Assembly: GCA_050732875.1 (NCBI GenBank)
Contig: JBOHRQ010000003.1
Location: forward strand, 2,821 to 66,820
Reading direction: 5' to 3'
Length of the DNA stretch: 64,000 bases
Source of the DNA: Gemmatimonadota bacterium
GTDB taxonomy: Bacteria; Gemmatimonadota; Gemmatimonadetes; JACCXV01; JAHWKZ01
The notes under the pieces were generated by a model. That model did not search any database. It was not told the DNA's origin and saw nothing but the letters and a program-made list of their open reading frames with translations. How positions within the stretch are numbered: the first letter of the stretch is position 1; the number at the start of each line of letters is the position of its first letter. The position numbers and the translations under genes are program-made. Shown here piece by piece: positions 2,755 to 57,810 of the stretch.

Positions 2755-3543
2755 TTACGCCTTCTCCGACAGCGGGATTCCGGCAAAGGCGAGCATCCGG
2801 TCCCGGGATCGCTCGCGGCGGTGGCTGAAGAAGAGCTCGGCCGAACACGAAGTGCAGTACGAGGATACGCTGATCGAGGAGCGCGGCACGCCCCGCGCCT
2901 CGGCCTGGCGGGACAGCGCCGCCCGGAGATCCACCCGCGGACCTTCCGGCGTGCGGTGGACCCAGCCGTCAACCGCCGGGCCGGCGCCGCTCGACCGGAT
3001 GGCTTCGACGACCTCTTCGCCCACCGGATAGCAACACGGCGCCACCGCCGGTCCCCACCACGCGAGGACGGTCTCGGACCGGATCCCGAGCCGCTCCATC
3101 AGGGCCAGGGCCGCCGGCATGATCCCGGCCGCGATCCCCCGCCACCCCGCATGGAGGAGGGCGACTGCCTCTTCCCCGGGGGCGTAGAGGAGAGCCGGCA
3201 CGCAGTCGGCCACGCCGACGGTCAGGAGCGTCCCCGGCCGGCGCGTCAGAAAGCCGTCGTAGCCGGTCAGGCGCAGCAGGTAGGGACCCTCGCGGGGGGT
3301 CGATTCCGGAACCCGGACGCCGTCGGTCTCGTAGATGCGCGAGCCGTGCGTCTGGGTGCCGCCCACCAGGCCGTCGAAGCGCCGGGCCGCCCAGGAGCGC
3401 AGTCCCTCCAGCGCCGGGTCGCGGCGGCCGTCGGAAACAGCGGCGGCGGCCCGCAGGGTGATCCCCGCCCGCAGGGCTCGGCCGGGCCAGGCCAGATCGA
3501 GACGGGGAAGGCCCTCCCCGAGAGACTCCACGGCGCGGTTCAC
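2755..3543 (-). CDS. pgeF: Purine nucleoside phosphorylase / laccase-domain protein of the YfiH/PgeF (DUF152) family.
   Basis: The sequence matches the YfiH/PgeF family over its full length, including the conserved His/Cys region (HAGWRG...CCY...CTSC). Its GTG start overlaps the stop of the upstream MscS gene as GTGA. Confidence 0.8.
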   Translation of the reverse strand: MNRAVESLGEGLPRLDLAWPGRALRAGITLRAAAAVSDGRRDPALEGLRSWAARRFDGLVGGTQTHGSRIYETDGVRVPESTPREGPYLLRLTGYDGFLTRRPGTLLTVGVADCVPALLYAPGEEAVALLHAGWRGIAAGIMPAALALMERLGIRSETVLAWWGPAVAPCCYPVGEEVVEAIRSSGAGPAVDGWVHRTPEGPRVDLRAALSRQAEARGVPRSSISVSSYCTSCSAELFFSHRRERSRDRMLAFAGIPLSEKA

Positions 3544-4562
3544 GGGGCCGCGTTTCCGGGACCCGCTTCCTGTGCGGCGTCGCCGCCGGAAGCGGGGGGG
3601 CTGGCGTCCTCAGCCGGCAGACGCTCGACGAACAGCGACACATGAGGGTAGGGGATCTCGATTCCCGCCTCGTCGAGCGCCTTCTTGATCCGCTCGGTGT
3701 ACTCGTACTCGATGGGGACCTCCTCGTGCGGGTTCTTCAGCCAGAAGCGGAGCCGGAAGTTGACCGCGGACTCGGCCATCTCCGTCACCACGACATCGGG
3801 CGCGGGCCGCGTCCGGAGGCGTTCGTCGCCCGCCGTCAGGCCGAGGATCGCCGCACGCGCGGCATCGATGTCCGCCTCGTAGGCGATCCCGAACGGGACG
3901 TCGATGCGCGTCGCGGCCTGCATGGTATGATTGATGATCTTGTTGTTGACGACGCTCTGGTTGGGGATGATGATCACGATGTTCTGGTTCGTGTGGATAC
4001 GCGTCGAGCGCAGCGTGATGCGTTTCACCTGCCCGAACTCGCCGTCGATCTCGACCCGGTCGCCGACGCGAAACGGACGATCCCAGAGAATGGTCATTCC
4101 GGCGATGAAGTTCGCCAGCGTATCCTTCGCCGCGAAGCCCAGCGCGAGCCCGGCCACGCCCAGACCCGCGAGCAGACCCGTGATGTTGAGCCCGAGCTGG
4201 CCCAGGGCGAGGAGGATCCCGAAACCGAGAACAACGTAGCGCAGGACCACGATCAGGAGCTGGCTGGCATCCTCGCCCAGGCGCCCGCGATCGAGGACCG
4301 GCTTCAGGGCCCGCGCCATCAGCCAGTAGATCCCGACGAAGACGAGGACCACCAGGAGCGCCACGACCAGCTTGCCGGCGAACTTCAGCAGCTCCACCTG
4401 GAACTCGCCGGCCAGCGCCCAGACATCCGCCATCGAGCGGATCTCCGTCACCCGATCGACCGTTCGTTCGAGGTCTTCCAGGATGCGCGTCGTGTCGGCC
4501 GGCAGCGAATCGGCCGGTGGCGATTGCATCCCGGGGAGCGGCGGTGAGACGTCCTGGGCCAT
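3540..4562 (-). CDS. Mechanosensitive ion channel of the MscS family.
   Basis: N-terminal TM helices are followed by the MscS beta-domain motif (GDRVEIDGEFGQVKRITLRSTRIHTNQNIVIIPN). Confidence 0.8.
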   Translation of the reverse strand: MAQDVSPPLPGMQSPPADSLPADTTRILEDLERTVDRVTEIRSMADVWALAGEFQVELLKFAGKLVVALLVVLVFVGIYWLMARALKPVLDRGRLGEDASQLLIVVLRYVVLGFGILLALGQLGLNITGLLAGLGVAGLALGFAAKDTLANFIAGMTILWDRPFRVGDRVEIDGEFGQVKRITLRSTRIHTNQNIVIIIPNQSVVNNKIINHTMQAATRIDVPFGIAYEADIDAARAAILGLTAGDERLRTRPAPDVVVTEMAESAVNFRLRFWLKNPHEEVPIEYEYTERIKKALDEAGIEIPYPHVSLFVERLPAEDASPPASGGDAAQEAGPGNAAP

Positions 4563-18214: not shown

Positions 18215-18892
18215 TCAGGAGTCGAAGATCTCTACGCCCTCCGGCGGCTCGAACTCGAAGGCGCTTCCCGACAGGGGCGCGTTGGGCTCCAGCCGCACGA
18301 ACGTGTAGGTGGTGGCGACGCCCTCGTCGGTGCGCGTCCGGACCTGGCGCGGAAATCCAGTCTCCCGGTCGACCCACACTTCCAGCAGCATGAAAGGCGC
18401 CCGAGGGCCCGCCGGCGTGAGGACCAGGCGATCGGTCGCGCGGCCGGCCACCGTCTGCGTGCCTCCCGACACCGCCACGTAGTCGTCCCGCAGGTCGCGC
18501 AGGTAGGTGAGGGGGTTCCGGACGTCGCTCCGGGCGGCCGGCTGGCGGATCACCTGGCCCGGCTGGCTGCTCGGCAGGTAGATCCAGACCCGCTCCCCGT
18601 CGTTGACGACGACATCGCCCGCGGGGTCGCTGTAGGCGATCCTGAAGAGCTCCGGCGAGCGGTAGGTGAGCGTGCCATGGCCCGTCGTCGTCCGCTCGAG
18701 GACGGGGTTGTAGACCTGCTGGTCGAACTCCGCCCGCAGGGTCTCCAGGCGATCCAGCGCCCGATCCGCACGCTGGAGAACCTGTTCGGGGTCGCTCGGA
18801 TTCTGATAGCCGAGCCCCGCCGTCGGCTGGACGAGCGCCAGGGCCAGCAGCCCCGCGCTCAGGCGGCTCATCATGCACTTCATGGTCATGTT
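18215..18892 (-). CDS. lolA: Outer-membrane lipoprotein carrier protein LolA-like
   Basis: It has a signal peptide and LolA-like beta-barrel sequence; the exact start is uncertain. Confidence 0.65.
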   Translation of the reverse strand, partial: NMTMKCMMSRLSAGLLALALVQPTAGLGYQNPSDPEQVLQRADRALDRLETLRAEFDQQVYNPVLERTTTGHGTLTYRSPELFRIAYSDPAGDVVVNDGERVWIYLPSSQPGQVIRQPAARSDVRNPLTYLRDLRDDYVAVSGGTQTVAGRATDRLVLTPAGPRAPFMLLEVWVDRETGFPRQVRTRTDEGVATTYTFVRLEPNAPLSGSAFEFEPPEGVEIFDS

Positions 18893-18985
18893 GGACCCCG
18901 CGCCGCGCCCCGGTGTTCCGGTCACGGGGCTGGCATGACGGTCGGCCCGACCCCATCATGCGACCGCCTCGTCCTCAACGACCCG

Positions 18986-19152
18986 CTAGTGTGCTGAGTC
19001 AGAAGTCCGGTGAAGCACCGAGAGCCCCGCTGCGCCCCGCGGGCGAGGCGCGACGAGGAGGAATGGCAGCGCCATTCCGCACGAGTCGCAACGAAGCCCC
19101 CGGGGATGCAGCGGGGCTCGAATGCCAACGGACTTCTGACTCAGCACACTAG
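18986..19152. mobile_element. MITE copy A. This 167-bp palindromic element is Correia/IS630-like, with ~19-bp terminal inverted repeats and TA flanks at a CTAG site.
   Basis: It is near-identical to 55780-55945. The TIRs are gtgtgctgagtcagaagtc ... gacttctgactcagcacac, and nested inner inverted repeats occur (gagccccgctgc/gcagcggggctc and ggaatggc/gccattcc). Confidence 0.8.
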
Positions 19153-21326
19153 GCGCCGACGACGCGTCCGGGCTCGCGCATGTGATGCGCCCCGAAGTAC
19201 TCCTTCCGCTCCACCTCCAGAATCCCGTCGATGGACTTCATCGACTCGATCACGCGGTTGAGGTGCTCCAGGTCGGTGACCTCGACCACGAACGTCCCCT
19301 CGATCCCGCTCTCGGTGGCGCTCAGGTCGGCGCTCTTGATGTCGGTCGAGGTGCGGGAGACGGCGCCCGCCACGTCGGCGAACAGGCCGCGGCGGTCGGT
19401 GCCGGTCACGACGAGCCGCACGATGAAAGTCTGGGCCCCGCCGGTATCCCACTCGACCTCGATCTTGCGGTCGGGCTCGTCGGTCATGTTCAGGATGTTC
19501 GGGCAGTCGGTCCGATGGATGGAGACGCCGCGCCCGCGGGTCACGTAGCCCATGATCTCGTCGCCTGGAATCGGCTGGCAGCATTGGCTGAAGCGCACCA
19601 TCATGTTGTCGAAGCCCTGGATCCGGACGCCTCCGGGCCGCCCTTTGATCTTCTCGACCAGCCGTTCGAACGCCGACGCCGGCTTCCGCTCGGCCGTCCT
19701 CTCCTCGGGAAAAAGGACGTTCCACACCTGAGAGATCGTCAGCTCCCCATGGCCCAGCGCCGCGTACAGGTCCTCGGCTTCGCCTACGCTGAAGTGCCTG
19801 GCGGTCTCCTCGAGCCGGTCGTCGTCGGGCTTCCGGACGCGGTTCCGACGGTATTCCTTCTCGAGCATGTCCTTGCCCAGCGTCACCGAACCGGCGTGCT
19901 CCTCCTCGCGGAGGGTCCGCCGGATGATCGACCGCGCCTTCGAGGTCTTGACGAAATGGAGCCAGTCCCGCGATGGACGCTGGGAAGCGCTGGTGAGGAC
20001 CTCGACCGTGTCACCCGAGCGCAGCTGGCGATGGAGGGGCACCATGCGGCCGTTCACCATCGCCCCCGAGCACCGCATCCCGACCTCGGTGTGCACCTGG
20101 AAGGCAAAGTCGATGGGCGTCGAGCCGGCCGGGAGCTGGACGACGTCCCCGCGCGGGGTGAAGACGAAGATCTCGTCCTTGTAGAGGTCGATCTGGAGGT
20201 ACTCCATGAACTCCTCCGGATCCGTCATGTCCTGCTGCCACTCCAGGATCTGGCGGAACCATGCGAGCTGCTCGTCGATCTCCGTGCCTTCGGTCCCCTC
20301 CTTGTACTTCCAGTGGGCCGCGATGCCGACCTCGGCCGTGCGATGCATCTCCCCGGTGCGGATCTGGATCTCGTAGAGCGTCCCCGCGGGGCCGAACACG
20401 GTCGTGTGAAGGGACTGGTACATGTTCGACTTCGGAGTCGCGATGTAATCCTTGAAGCGCTCGTGGACGGGCGTCCAGAGCGTGTGGATGATCCCCAGCC
20501 CGTGATAGCAGTCACGAACGGTCTCGGTCAGGACACGGATGGCCAGAAGATCGTAGATCTCGCCGTAGGGCTTCCCCCGGCCGACCATCTTCTTGTGGAT
20601 CGACCACAGATGCTTGGGACGGCCGGCGATCTCGGACTTGATGCCGGCCTCCATCAGCGCCCCTTCGAGCGGTGCCGCGATCGCTGCGATCATCCGCTCG
20701 CGCTCGCGCCGCTTCGACTTGACCTGCTTCGCAAGCGCCCGGTACGCCTCGGGCTCGAGGAACTTGAACGACAGATCCTCGAGCTCCCACCGGATCGTGG
20801 CCATACCGAACCGATGCGCCAGCGGGGCATAGATGTCGCGGGTCTCCCGGGCGATCCGGCGACGCTTGGTGTCGGGCAGATACTCCAACGTCCGCATATT
20901 GTGCAGCCGATCCGCCAGCTTGATCATGATGATGCGGATGTCCTGGGCCATCGAGAGCAGCAGCTTGCGGTAGTTTTCGACCTGGCGCTCCTCGCGCGAT
21001 TGGAACCGCAGATGACCGATCTTGGTGAGGCCGTCCACGAGCCGCGCCACTTCGGGGCCGAAGTCCTCCTCGACCAGCTCGAGCGAGGTCTCCGTGTCCT
21101 CCACGACGTCGTGCAGAAGGGCCGCCGCGATCGTATTGGTATCCACGAGGTTCAGCTCCAGCAGAATCCCCGCGATCTCGGCGGCGTGGGAGACGAACGG
21201 CTCGCCGGAGAGGCGCTTCTGCCCCGCGTGCGCGCGCTCGCTGAAGGCATACGCCCGCTCGATCCGCTCAAGATCGACACGGTCGGCGTAGGGCGTCAGC
21301 GCCTCGAGGAGTGCCTTTCTATCCAT
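19149..21326 (-). CDS. Bifunctional (p)ppGpp synthetase/hydrolase RelA/SpoT
   Basis: The HD hydrolase, RelA/SpoT synthetase, TGS and ACT domains are all present. Its TAG stop (19149-19151) lies inside the CTAG at the edge of the MITE. Confidence 0.9.
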   Translation of the reverse strand: MDRKALLEALTPYADRVDLERIERAYAFSERAHAGQKRLSGEPFVSHAAEIAGILLELNLVDTNTIAAALLHDVVEDTETSLELVEEDFGPEVARLVDGLTKIGHLRFQSREERQVENYRKLLLSMAQDIRIIMIKLADRLHNMRTLEYLPDTKRRRIARETRDIYAPLAHRFGMATIRWELEDLSFKFLEPEAYRALAKQVKSKRRERERMIAAIAAPLEGALMEAGIKSEIAGRPKHLWSIHKKMVGRGKPYGEIYDLLAIRVLTETVRDCYHGLGIIHTLWTPVHERFKDYIATPKSNMYQSLHTTVFGPAGTLYEIQIRTGEMHRTAEVGIAAHWKYKEGTEGTEIDEQLAWFRQILEWQQDMTDPEEFMEYLQIDLYKDEIFVFTPRGDVVQLPAGSTPIDFAFQVHTEVGMRCSGAMVNGRMVPLHRQLRSGDTVEVLTSASQRPSRDWLHFVKTSKARSIIRRTLREEEHAGSVTLGKDMLEKEYRRNRVRKPDDDRLEETARHFSVGEAEDLYAALGHGELTISQVWNVLFPEERTAERKPASAFERLVEKIKGRPGGVRIQGFDNMMVRFSQCCQPIPGDEIMGYVTRGRGVSIHRTDCPNILNMTDEPDRKIEVEWDTGGAQTFIVRLVVTGTDRRGLFADVAGAVSRTSTDIKSADLSATESGIEGTFVVEVTDLEHLNRVIESMKSIDGILEVERKEYFGAHHMREPGRVVGA

Positions 21327-54858: not shown

Positions 54859-55677
54859 TTAACCTCGCCCCCCGAGCCGGTCAACGAGGTTTTCGGCCCA
54901 TTCCGAGGGGACGCGCGGCAGCCCGATCCGGCTGCGGTGACCGGGCGTGCCGTGAAAGTCGCTGCCCCCCGTCGGCAACAGCCCGAGGTCTCCTGCCAGC
55001 GCCTCGTAATGACGCATCGCGGCGGCGGAATGCTCGGTGTGGCGGACCTCGAGACCGAGCAGCCCCTCCTCGGCCAGGACCGGGATCAGATCGTCGCATC
55101 GAAAGGTTCCCGGATGCGCCAGGACGGGAATGCCGCCCGCGCGGCGCACCGCCCGGAAAGTGCGGCCCGGATCGCGAAGAGGCTTGGCCACGAACCCCGG
55201 CCGCGAGCGTCCGATGAACCGCGAGAAGGCCTCGTCCAGAGTGCGCACGTGACCGCGCTCGACGAGCGCCATGGCCACGTGCGGCCGCGTGATCGTGGCC
55301 CCTGTGGCGATCCGCTCCACGTCGGCGAGCTCGACCTCGATTCCCAGCCGGTTGAGGCGGCCGACCATCTCCCGGGCACGCTCGTGTCGCTGGCCGGCCA
55401 GCTCCTCCAGCTCGCGCCGGAAGACCGGGTCCCCCACGTCGACGCCGTACGCCAGGATGTGCGCCTCGCGGTTTCCGGCGTGGCAGGTCAGCTCGACACC
55501 CGTGATGACCGTCATCCCCGCGGGCGCCGTGGCGACGGCCTCCTCCACCGCGGCCACCGTGTCGTGATCGGTGACCGCCAGGAAGCGGATTCCCCGCTCG
55601 GCCGCTCGCGCCACCAGGTCGGCCGGGGGCAGCGCCCCGTCGGAGGCATTGGTGTGAGTGTGGAGATCGACGCTCAC
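54859..55677 (-). CDS. PHP-domain metal-dependent phosphoesterase (TrpH/YciV-like)
   Basis: The N-terminus VDLHTHTNASDG and the PHP-domain His residues are present. Confidence 0.8.
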   Translation of the reverse strand: MSVDLHTHTNASDGALPPADLVARAAERGIRFLAVTDHDTVAAVEEAVATAPAGMTVITGVELTCHAGNREAHILAYGVDVGDPVFRRELEELAGQRHERAREMVGRLNRLGIEVELADVERIATGATITRPHVAMALVERGHVRTLDEAFSRFIGRSRPGFVAKPLRDPGRTFRAVRRAGGIPVLAHPGTFRCDDLIPVLAEEGLLGLEVRHTEHSAAAMRHYEALAGDLGLLPTGGSDFHGTPGHRSRIGLPRVPSEWAENLVDRLGGRG

Positions 55678-55779
55678 CTGGTTGCTATGCCTCCTCGTCG
55701 CGCCTCGCGCGGGGTACCCAACGCAGGTGGGCGCCGCCGGCCCGATCGGCACACGTCATCGTACTCATGACCGCGTGCA

Positions 55780-55945
55780 CTAGCGTGCTGAGTCAGAAGT
55801 CCGGTGAAGCACCGAGAGCCCCGCTGCGCCCTGCGGGCGAGGCGCGACGAGGAGGAATGGCAGCGCCATTCCGCACGAGTCGCAACGAAGCCCCCGGGGA
55901 TGCAGCGGGGCTCGAATGCCAACGACTTCTGACTCAGCACACTAG
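55780..55945. mobile_element. MITE copy B, 166 bp. It is the same element as 18986-19152 and is inserted at the CTAG stop of the metH-metF fusion gene.
   Basis: It differs from copy A by two substitutions and one 1-bp indel, and has the same TIRs and TA flanks. Confidence 0.8.
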
Positions 55946-57810
55946 CGTGCGATCAGCCCGTCGAGCACCTCGAGCGCCATCTCGTAACGACCGAACGGGG
56001 GCATCACGTAGGCCCCCTGAACGCCAGGCACGCCCCTGACCGCGGCCAACGCTTCGCGCGCGATGTCCACCCCCAGGGCGGCCGCCTCGCGGCCATCCAC
56101 GACCCGCCGCATCCGCTCCCGGACCGCCTCGGGTATGCGCATCCCCGGCACCTCGTTGTGCAGAAACTCCGCGTTGCGGAACGAATACAGCGGCAGGATG
56201 CCTGCCAGGATCGGGATCGGGAGCGGACCCACCTCCGCCACGAAGTCCGCCAGGTCCCCGGCGTCGAAGATCGGCTGCGACATGGCGAAGCGGGCCCCGG
56301 CCTCGATCTTCCGTCGGAAGCGCTCCACCTCGAGCGCGCGGTCCACGGCGCCCGGGTTCACCCCGACCCCGACGTGCAGATCGAGCGGGACACCGGTCTC
56401 CTTTCCGGCGGCATCCAGCCCGAGCGTCAGCCGGCTCGCCACGCGCACGAGCCCGATCGAGTCGACATCGAAGACGGCGGTGGGAACCGCGTACTCCCCC
56501 GCCTTGGGCGGATCCCCGGTGATGATCAGCACGTCGCGGACGTCCAGGGCATGGGCGGCCATCAGGTCGGCCTGCATCCCGTAAAGATTGCGGTCGCGGC
56601 AGCAGTAATGGATGATGGTTTCGACCGGGACGCGATCGCGCAGCACCCGGGCGATCGCCAGCGGAGTCACACGCGGAGAGATGCGGGCGTATTCCGGGAT
56701 GTTGACGGCGTCGACCCCGGTCTCGGCGATGTCCCGGACCGCCGCCACCAGCGACCCGAGATCGGCGCTCGTCGGCGGGGTGAGCTCCACCGAGACGACG
56801 AACCGGCCCTCGGCCAGTCGCCGGGCCAGCTCCGTGGGGCGGACATCGGGCCGTGAAACCGCGGCCCGGACCGGTTCGGCCTCGACCTCTTCGACGACGG
56901 TGACGCGGACCTTCGGAGCATACCTCTGGACGGAGTGGACCATCGTCCGCACGTGCTCCGGGGTGGTCCCGCAGCATCCTCCGAGCAAGCGCACGCCGGC
57001 CTGGACGAAGCGCTTGGCGTACTTGCCGAAATACTCCGGCCCGGCCATGTACATGAGCCGCCCCTCGACCGACTGCGGCAGCCCGGCGTTCGGCATCGCC
57101 GCCAGAAAGGCCCCGTTGCCGCCCTCCATCCGGACCAGACAGTCGAGCATGGGCCGGGGACCCACGCTGCAGTTGGCACCGACGACGTCGGCCCCCGATT
57201 CCGCCAGTCGACGCGCGACCAGCTCCGGCCGGTCTCCCGACTGGGTCAGCCCTTCCTCGGTGAAGCTCATCATGGCGACGACCGGAATAGCGTCGTCGAG
57301 AGCGCGAATCGCCGCGAGGGCCGCGTCCATCTCGACCAGGGACGGGATCGTCTCGACGACCAGCAGGTCCACACCGCCCTCGAGCAGGGCCGCGGCCTGC
57401 TCGGCGAAGATCCCTCGCATGTCATCGACGTTGTATCCGCCGGCGACCTGACCGGTCACGCCGATCGGGCCCATCGATCCGCCCACCCAGGCCCGCTCCC
57501 CCCCCGCCTCGCGGGCGAGCCGGGCTCCGGCCCGGTTGATCTCCGCCACCCGGTCCTCGAGACCGTGCCCAAGCAGCCGGGCGCGGTTCGCCCCGAACGT
57601 GTTGGTCTCCAGCAGCTCGGCCCCGGCGGCCACGTAAGCGGCATGGATCTCCCGGATCATGTCCGGGCTGGACACGCAGAGCTCGTCGAAGCAGCGATTG
57701 ATGAACACCCCTCGCTCGTAGATCTGCGTACCCATCGCGCCATCGGCGACCAGCACGCCCTCGGCGAGGCGCTCGAGAAACCCGTCTCCGCGGTTCGACG
57801 ATCGTGTCAC
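55942..57810 (-). CDS. Bifunctional homocysteine S-methyltransferase / 5,10-methylenetetrahydrofolate reductase (YitJ-like)
   Basis: An N-terminal homocysteine-binding Pterin/Hcy domain (GAMGTQIYERG...GGCCGTTPEH) is fused to a C-terminal MetF domain. The TAG stop lies within the MITE's CTAG. Confidence 0.85.
   Translation of the reverse strand: MTRSSNRGDGFLERLAEGVLVADGAMGTQIYERGVFINRCFDELCVSSPDMIREIHAAYVAAGAELLETNTFGANRARLLGHGLEDRVAEINRAGARLAREAGGERAWVGGSMGPIGVTGQVAGGYNVDDMRGIFAEQAAALLEGGVDLLVVETIPSLVEMDAALAAIRALDDAIPVVAMMSFTEEGLTQSGDRPELVARRLAESGADVVGANCSVGPRPMLDCLVRMEGGNGAFLAAMPNAGLPQSVEGRLMYMAGPEYFGKYAKRFVQAGVRLLGGCCGTTPEHVRTMVHSVQRYAPKVRVTVVEEVEAEPVRAAVSRPDVRPTELARRLAEGRFVVSVELTPPTSADLGSLVAAVRDIAETGVDAVNIPEYARISPRVTPLAIARVLRDRVPVETIIHYCCRDRNLYGMQADLMAAHALDVRDVLIITGDPPKAGEYAVPTAVFDVDSIGLVRVASRLTLGLDAAGKETGVPLDLHVGVGVNPGAVDRALEVERFRRKIEAGARFAMSQPIFDAGDLADFVAEVGPLPIPILAGILPLYSFRNAEFLHNEVPGMRIPEAVRERMRRVVDGREAAALGVDIAREALAAVRGVPGVQGAYVMPPFGRYEMALEVLDGLIAR

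Follow-up and report, generated by a model that had tools for sequence, protein, structure and literature searches.

The closest published precedent for the elements reported here is the bacterial IS630-type MITE pair RUP/IS630-Spn1 (PMC2229807). RUP of Streptococcus pneumoniae is small (~107 bp, against 161 bp for the present element) and non-coding, and is thought to be mobilised by IS630-Spn1. As in our case, RUP bears terminal inverted repeats (TIRs) of the IS630 type, inserts at TA, resides mainly between genes and occurs as highly similar copies (PMC2229807). On the other hand, the two systems presumably have no sequence similarity, belong to hosts of different phyla and apparently to different clades of parental IS630, and the present element stands apart from RUP as an almost complete palindrome with a strong CTAG context. 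The duplication of TA is shared with both IS630 of Shigella sonnei and ISY100 of Synechocystis, which insert into TA and duplicate it (PMC2170065), and the preference for TA within 5'-CTAG-3' is shared with IS630 (Tenzen and Ohtsubo, 1991, as cited in PMC2170065). The autonomous IS630-type forms are ~1.15 kb in length and encode a single transposase with HTH and DDE domains, whereas none is encoded by the elements analyzed here; in the clade of their partners, furthermore, the transposase ORF ends at a TAG made of the target duplication and the flank.

Two other systems have to be compared. The Correia elements (CREE/NEMIS) of Neisseria are likewise ~100-160 bp in length, with long inverted repeats and TA flanks; they are co-transcribed with the genes next to them and form RNA hairpins (PMC2229807). 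They are specific to Neisseria and have a TIR sequence of their own, an IHF site and promoter elements. To our knowledge, no transposase has been assigned to the Correia elements, and we take their TIRs to be different from those of the present element. TA flanks and a long hairpin of ~100-160 nt are found in our elements as well, but these are features of many MITEs and are not diagnostic for Correia (CREE/NEMIS). The term "Correia-like" in the preliminary description of this DNA holds as an analogy of architecture and TA duplication, not as membership. MITEPsy1 of Pseudomonas syringae is likewise a small MITE targeting CTAG (PMC3189936), albeit with a 4-nt duplication and an origin in the IS5 family, in contrast to the TA duplication and the IS630 origin of the present family.

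We assign the two elements described below to IS630-type MITEs that are moved in trans by a transposase recognising the 21-bp TIR and are cut and pasted into TA within CTAG, and put the probability of this reading at roughly 90%. It is carried by the repeat itself, its TIRs, the TA duplication seen against an empty site, the target common to the family and the IS630 class of the partner elements. The MITE/IS630 reading had already been put forward in the preliminary description, and the empty site, the TIRs shared with IS630 elements and the TA/CTAG target bear it out. The element thus works like RUP/IS630-Spn1 and IS630, and IS630-derived MITEs are already well known in kind.

The two copies and their insertion sites

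The window, by which we mean the whole stretch of 64 kb that was analyzed (68.5% GC), is from an uncultured Gemmatimonadota bacterium, as judged from its sequence: the RelA and the homocysteine S-methyltransferase/MTHFR fusion (622 aa) encoded in it are each 100% identical to NCBI Gemmatimonadota MAG proteins, P0121 being the match of the fusion over 622 aa. It contains two copies of the MITE and one remnant. Copy 1 (161 bp; positions 18989..19149) was delimited by alignment, family HMM and fold, and copy 2 (160 bp; positions 55783..55942) by alignment and family HMM, both limits being given without the duplicated TA. The two copies lie in the same orientation, on the plus strand of the family profile, as the family HMM scored them at 91-134 bits on the plus strand and at 19-30 bits on the minus strand.

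These elements had been described as ~98% identical to each other, bounded by TIRs of ~19 bp, able to fold as a whole into one hairpin and flanked by TA within CTAG, and all of these observations were reproduced. The alignment of the two copies contains two substitutions and one 1-bp indel over ~161 bp, and a repeat search of the window recovered, as its longest match by a wide margin, 145 nt at 99% identity. Exactly four instances of the 17-mer GTGCTGAGTCAGAAGTC are present in the 64-kb window, at the four element ends and in inverted arrangement, against a mean of 0.14 occurrences in shuffled sequences. The TIRs span 17-21 bp: the left TIR of copy 1, GTGTGCTGAGTCAGAAGTCCG (18989..19009, plus strand), identified by the 17-mer count and by the match at 20 of 21 positions to the TIR of a full-length partner (L119; see below), is a perfect 21-bp repeat of which the right TIR (19129..19149, minus strand) is the perfect inverse, and the TIR of copy 2 is reduced to 17 perfect bases by a substitution on the left and the indel on the right. 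For both strands of the element, the fold obtained is a single extended hairpin with a dG of about -125 kcal/mol (z = -14 against shuffles). Both copies are flanked in the form c-TA-element-TA-g. The unstranded TA flanks are located at 18987..18988 and 19150..19151 for copy 1, where the comparison with the empty site identifies them as the duplicated target and the right one is part of the relA stop, and at 55781..55782 (common to the junction of the older remnant) and 55943..55944 (part of the TAG of the fusion gene) for copy 2.

All of the neighbouring genes are on the minus strand. Copy 1 follows the RelA/SpoT gene (19149..21326; 725 aa; Pfam HD_4, RelA_SpoT, TGS and ACT), of which the next gene downstream is lolA (18215..18925; Pfam LolA, 7.7e-20), and the gene order relA-lolA-uvrB is kept in relatives. 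A longer ORF considered at the position of lolA gave no family match, and was set aside in favour of the ORF at 18215-18925. Copy 2 follows the gene of the bifunctional homocysteine S-methyltransferase/MTHFR (55942..57810; 622 aa by the NCBI call; Pfam S-methyl_trans and MTHFR), beyond which lies a gene for a PHP-domain phosphoesterase (54859..55677; 272 aa; Pfam PHP and the gene call in a sister assembly). The TAG stop of relA consists of the TA at 19150..19151 and the terminal C of the element (C19149), and that of the fusion gene consists of the TA at 55943..55944 and C55942. As each stop is made of the right-hand TA and the last base of the element (C, hence G on the minus strand), both host proteins are left unchanged. 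The codon coordinates thereby agree with the preliminary description, in which the insertions were placed exactly on the TAG stops of relA and the metH-metF fusion. Its further statement that the elements sit immediately upstream of lolA and the PHP gene needs correction at both sites: lolA lies ~60 nt beyond copy 1, and the PHP start (55677) is 103 nt away from copy 2, since an older truncated copy adjoins copy 2.

The relA site is found empty in the MAG GCA_050732895.1, of which the RelA is 96% identical to that of the window. The end of relA in this MAG reads GGCGCC-TAG-CGGGTCGTTGAGGACG (in a longer stretch, ...GTCGTCGGCGCCTAGCGGGTCGTTGAGGACG; with the string upstream of the stop, ...CCCGGACGCGTCGTCGGCGCC-TAG-CGGGTCGTTGAGGACG), which is what remains of the window sequence once the element and one TA are taken out; the identity covers 25 nt on the upstream and 19 nt on the downstream side. 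The site reconstructed in the preliminary description by taking out the element and one TA is the same string as this orthologous empty site. The junction between the fusion and PHP genes is free of the element in GCA_050732895.1 and two other assemblies (fusion protein 93% identical), in all three of which the fusion stop (TAG) and the PHP start (GTG) overlap in the string TAGTG. This overlap of stop and start, seen when 55675-55700 of the window is set against 4010-4030 of locus L161, implies translational coupling of the two genes in the relatives; in the window, the fusion stop and the PHP start are 264 nt apart. In more distant relatives (RelA 89-95% identical), the relA-lolA spacers are 50-53 nt in length and contain no element. 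The latter genomes were rejected as a precise empty site, as they have GTAG instead of CTAG and spacers that are unalignable, and they indicate absence only.

Insertion polymorphism among relatives, proposed earlier as a check of mobility, was observed at both sites, which are filled in the window and in GCA_973786185.1 and empty in GCA_050732895.1. GCA_973786185.1, an independent assembly of the same organism, carries copy 2 in full, and one of its contigs stops 127 nt into copy 1. We attribute this contig break to the repeat, as assemblers break at repeats. Altogether, both insertions arose after the split from GCA_050732895.1, the closest relative sampled, and the 98-99% identity between the copies probably reflects recent movement.

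The 103 nt between copy 2 and the PHP start (55678..55780, minus strand) are absent from the relatives, where the stop and start codons overlap. This segment appears to be what is left of an earlier insertion of the same MITE lineage, truncated and oppositely oriented, judging from a match of 26 of 29 positions to the MITE interior at about 55682-55714 (chance about 1e-9) and from a degenerate TIR-like end (13 of 21 positions as counted by eye, p = 0.002). Copy 2 was apparently inserted into the CTAG regenerated at the junction of this remnant. A GGAGG derived from the remnant precedes the PHP GTG by 12 nt, and the PHP gene may now use it as a ribosome-binding site.

The wider family and its IS630 partners

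A scan of metagenomes with GTGTNCTGAGTCAGAARTYC yielded at least 120 loci, and more than 120 elements in metagenomes have the TIR GTGTSCTGAGTCAGAAGTYCG at their ends. Among the loci listed, TA abuts 110 of the 133 exact TIR ends (83%) and CTA precedes 101 of them (76%), the remaining 17% of the ends being adjacent to TG, CA or other dinucleotides. The absence of a TA/CTAG pattern at other copies had been named in advance as an observation that would speak against the MITE reading; the pattern is present in more than 100 further copies. The paired ends among the loci listed fall into size classes of ~150, ~160-175 and ~265-270 bp.

The paired ends also bear on the length of the target duplication. 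At the two window copies, a 2-bp and a 4-bp model give the identical sequence, because G is the first and C the last base of the element. The same sequence can therefore be read as an IS5-type MITE with the termini TGTGC...GCACA and a 4-bp duplication of CTAG generated by an IS5-family transposase, as in MITEPsy1, whose insertions into CTAG or YTAA are accompanied by the duplication of 4 nt (PMC3189936). Among the loci listed, however, 44 paired elements are flanked by TA on both sides, and five of them reside in contexts other than CTAG (xTTA, CATA, TAAG and TACG), the flank pairs being GTTA...TAGC, CTTA...TAGC, CATA...TAGC, TCTA...TACG and ACTA...TAAG. As TA is kept on both sides while the tetranucleotides differ, the duplicated unit is TA, not CTAG. 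Moreover, the full-length partners sharing the TIRs encode IS630, not IS5, transposases (see below), and we consider an IS5-type origin extremely improbable.

The exact 17-mer of the TIR was also searched for in 185,579 representative genomes, a set from which the source species is absent. It was found as a pair in none of the 185,579 genomes, and the 30 single matches are mostly due to chance. Only four loci (L004, L007, L013 and L029) are true members of the family, in which GTGTGCTGAGTCAGAAGTCC marks the ends of small elements and is preceded by CTAG or CTGG; their hosts belong to Acidobacteriota, Terriglobia, Burkholderiales and another betaproteobacterial MAG. Four candidates (L005, L010, L023 of Verrucomicrobia, and L025) were dismissed as chance 17-mer matches in short tandem CAGAAGTC-like repeats that are unrelated to the MITE.

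The two copies in the window are members of a lineage of ~159-175 bp. Six members of this lineage (L036, L109, L148, L153, L101 and L149) share 65-71% identity with the window copies in the interior, and a profile search added ~16 further members. Elements of this lineage (~160-175 bp) were found in Gemmatimonadota and in a betaproteobacterial MAG, and Terriglobia contain a more weakly related element of 138 bp. No copy with more than 75% identity was found outside the source organism among the metagenomic loci listed, and blastn of the whole element against plasmids gave no match. Position 5 of the TIR varies (C, G or A), yet the two ends of an element almost always match (alignment columns 5 and 191); the pairs CG, GC, AU and GU are seen in 8, 6, 6 and 4 sequences, respectively, so that the ends co-vary within elements or subfamilies. 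A literature search by TIR sequence retrieved no relevant paper. This large MITE family of soil metagenomes thus appears to be unnamed; it is linked to a single, widespread clade of IS630 transposases.

The link is provided by full-length elements. A search for an IS630-family transposase with matching TIRs, suggested along with the preliminary description, led to metagenomic elements of ~1.15 kb: among the loci listed, ~14 elements of 1147-1206 bp carry both TIRs and one ORF each. The proteins of the two that were scanned, L110 (366 aa) and L119 (358 aa), match the NCBIfam model NF033545 "IS630 family transposase" at 275 and 250 bits, respectively (cutoff, 100 bits), as well as Pfam DDE_3 and HTH domains, and the TIR of the 1162-bp L119 is identical to the window TIR at 20 of 21 positions. 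IS630 ends were recovered also from Cupriavidus and Rhodococcus plasmids by a plasmid search with a 30-mer (E <= 10). In Cupriavidus necator and the Rhodococcus plasmids, the terminus TA-GTGTCCTGAGTCAGAAATTCG adjoins the C-terminus of an inward-facing IS630-type transposase, and in pACNA2.1 of Acidovorax carolinensis the element reads cgc-TA-GTGTCCTGAGTT...AACTCAGGACAC-TA-ggtcgc. Members of this transposase clade bear the annotation "IS630 family transposase" in 666 plasmid records from cultured bacteria.

Within the 64-kb window, tblastn with two IS630 transposases gave a best E-value of 0.09, in agreement with the earlier statement that the window holds no transposase. The elements of 160-161 bp are non-autonomous and non-coding, and their similarity to the transposases in tblastn is confined to 9-15 codons of the TIR region. 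When the best-matching transposase was used to look for a partner in Gemmatimonadota, proteins of Gemmataceae and unnamed ones from metagenomes were retrieved, and the nearest transposases found are from other phyla (Gemmataceae, Burkholderiales and Actinomycetota). An IS630-type transposase presumably acts, or acted, in trans in the source organism. No similarity beyond the TIR was detected between the MITE interior and the subterminal regions of the full-length partners, implying that the interior was not derived from the ISs sampled.

Two features of the partners themselves are worth recording. In 9 of the 14 full-length partners, the longest ORF (the transposase frame) crosses the right TIR (...C[EKR]R[IT]SDSGH) with no internal stop, and the TAG of the transposase is composed of the duplicated target TA and the flanking G of CTAG. 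The loci concerned are L110 (249-1349), L119 (1882-2958, minus strand) and L163 (295-1380), and further L067, L083, L085, L090, L111, L112 and L139; a stop supplied by the target is also seen in RefSeq WP_063462293.1 of an Acidovorax plasmid. With a stop supplied by the target, the element may profit from the CTAG (or TA-R) context. Separately, an IS110-family element interrupts the IS630 copy ~320-360 nt from the TIR in two unrelated hosts, namely C. necator p1 (L032, about 2830-3412) and a plasmid of Rhodococcus sp. M8-35 (L033, 2866-3966), and IS110 elements may target the partner IS630 clade in a site-specific manner.

CTAG targets and stop codons

CTAG is scarce in the window: 19 sites are present in 64 kb, whereas base composition predicts 186 and a Markov estimate 38, and 4 of the 19 owe their existence to the two MITEs. 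Of the native sites, some 6-9 are located on the stops of genes judged plausible by codon-position GC. Of the 114 TA-flanked ends among the loci listed, 52 (46%) fall where an open frame of 100 codons or more terminates. ORF-based stop calls in high-GC DNA include false positives, and the unoccupied CTAG sites of the same loci, examined in both reading directions, were therefore used as the control; 18% of these are on stops (Fisher p = 1.6e-9). We ascribe the placement on stop codons to the targeting of CTAG together with the purging of intragenic insertions. In the simplest reading, the landing of the two window copies on two stop codons is expected as a by-product of target choice and survivorship.

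The course of events that we propose is as follows. An IS630-type DDE transposase supplied in trans would bind the ~21-bp TIRs (GTGTGCTGAGTCAGAAGTCCG in copy 1), excise the element and insert it at TA, with a strong preference for TA in CTAG, whereby TA would be duplicated. An element of the form G...C placed in C-TA-G rebuilds CTAG at both junctions and leaves the host TAG intact. In this genome of 68.5% GC, CTAG is rare and TAG stops make up a large share of its sites. Selection would then purge intragenic insertions, and the survivors would be those on stops in short spacers between co-directional genes.

The base composition of the ends has a further consequence. Owing to the terminal G and C of the element, each insertion into CTAG turns one CTAG into two, as seen at all four junctions in the window. 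The doubled CTAG sites are new preferred targets, which favours tandem or nested arrays.

The hairpin and its possible roles

The interior of the element has more order than a decaying selfish repeat would strictly require, and its asymmetric blocks and covarying stems count against reading the copies as IS630-type MITEs. The same holds for the lack of an IS630 transposase in the window, of copies more than 75% identical outside the source organism among the loci listed and of a paired exact 17-mer in the 185,579 genomes, and for the ends adjacent to dinucleotides other than TA. In an alignment of 25 sequences, 92% of the cells pair, as opposed to 80% in column shuffles and ~33% with slid partners. 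Two-sided changes are seen in 19 of the 38 hairpin pairs, a count of covariation that is inflated by the kinship among the sequences. In the lineage of ~159-175 bp, the two asymmetric blocks GGCAAGGCGCGA and GAGCAACGCAGC hardly vary, and both are absent from the other MITE lineages with the same TIR. Their absence elsewhere indicates that the blocks are a trait of the lineage acquired by common descent, not a requirement of transposition. We treat the maintained hairpin as real.

The strong fold, the covarying stems and the conserved interior blocks would also suit a conserved structured RNA, be it a gene or a cis-regulatory element, that is not mobile and merely resembles a transposon, an alternative that had been raised in the preliminary description. 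A search of the window against Rfam 15 found no match at the gathering score, and at the level of E-values only sub-threshold generic hairpins akin to miRNA precursors. The orientation relative to the upstream gene is unbiased among the members with callable orientation (8 sense and 13 antisense, p = 0.38). The structured-RNA alternative is thus left with neither an Rfam family nor an orientation bias. In addition, the orthologous site is filled in one genome and empty in another with TA duplicated, the members reside in unrelated contexts and in both orientations, and the termini are IS630 TIRs. We hold this alternative to be scarcely credible.

More subtle is the possibility that the element arrived by transposition, as an IS630-type MITE would, but has since been domesticated, being kept because its RNA hairpin serves the operons in which it resides. 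The hairpin might stabilise the relA or fusion mRNA from its 3' side, be processed by RNase III, or attenuate the expression of lolA or PHP, comparable to the Correia elements of Neisseria, of which the transcripts (NEMIS) are processed by RNase III (PMC2229807). Both copies lie between closely spaced, co-directional genes and would be co-transcribed if these are operons, and such a role would agree with the stability of the fold (dG -125 kcal/mol, z = -14), the pairing of 92% in the 25 members with two-sided changes at 19 pairs, and the conservation of GGCAAGGCGCGA and GAGCAACGCAGC in the lineage. Nevertheless, a hairpin serving its operons is at odds with the unbiased orientation (8 sense against 13 antisense, p = 0.38), both insertions are young and missing in the closest relative, and the blocks are missing in the other lineages with the same TIR, so that common descent explains them. 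Consensus scans of the element found neither a sigma-70-like promoter nor a U-tract terminator, which speaks against domestication and also leaves the promoter or terminator activity suggested in the preliminary description unsupported. Altogether, we regard domestication as quite unlikely.

The IS630-type MITE reading itself may be extended. We tentatively raise, as an unlikely proposal, that the blocks and the covarying stems constitute a selected structural module of a transposon system adapted to TAG stop codons. An RNA or single-stranded DNA hairpin of this kind would ease insertions at stops within operons through read-through, processing or stabilisation of the mRNA. The proposal draws also on the self-regenerating CTAG and the transposase stop supplied by the target and, if true, the structural module would account for the success of the lineage across phyla.

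The mechanism of MITEs as it is known is left unchanged by these findings. For the uncultured Gemmatimonadota bacterium, they give the correct label to an unannotated repeat in its genome and account for the contig break in the independent assembly of the same organism. For the family, insertion at stop codons is shown quantitatively to follow from the targeting of CTAG in CTAG-poor genomes. The hairpin is presumably co-transcribed between the co-directional genes, and may have an effect on the expression of relA-lolA or fusion-PHP. As one copy resides in the relA-lolA-uvrB cluster and the other splits the formerly overlapping stop and start codons of the fusion and PHP genes, the two insertions may alter the expression of the operons that they entered.
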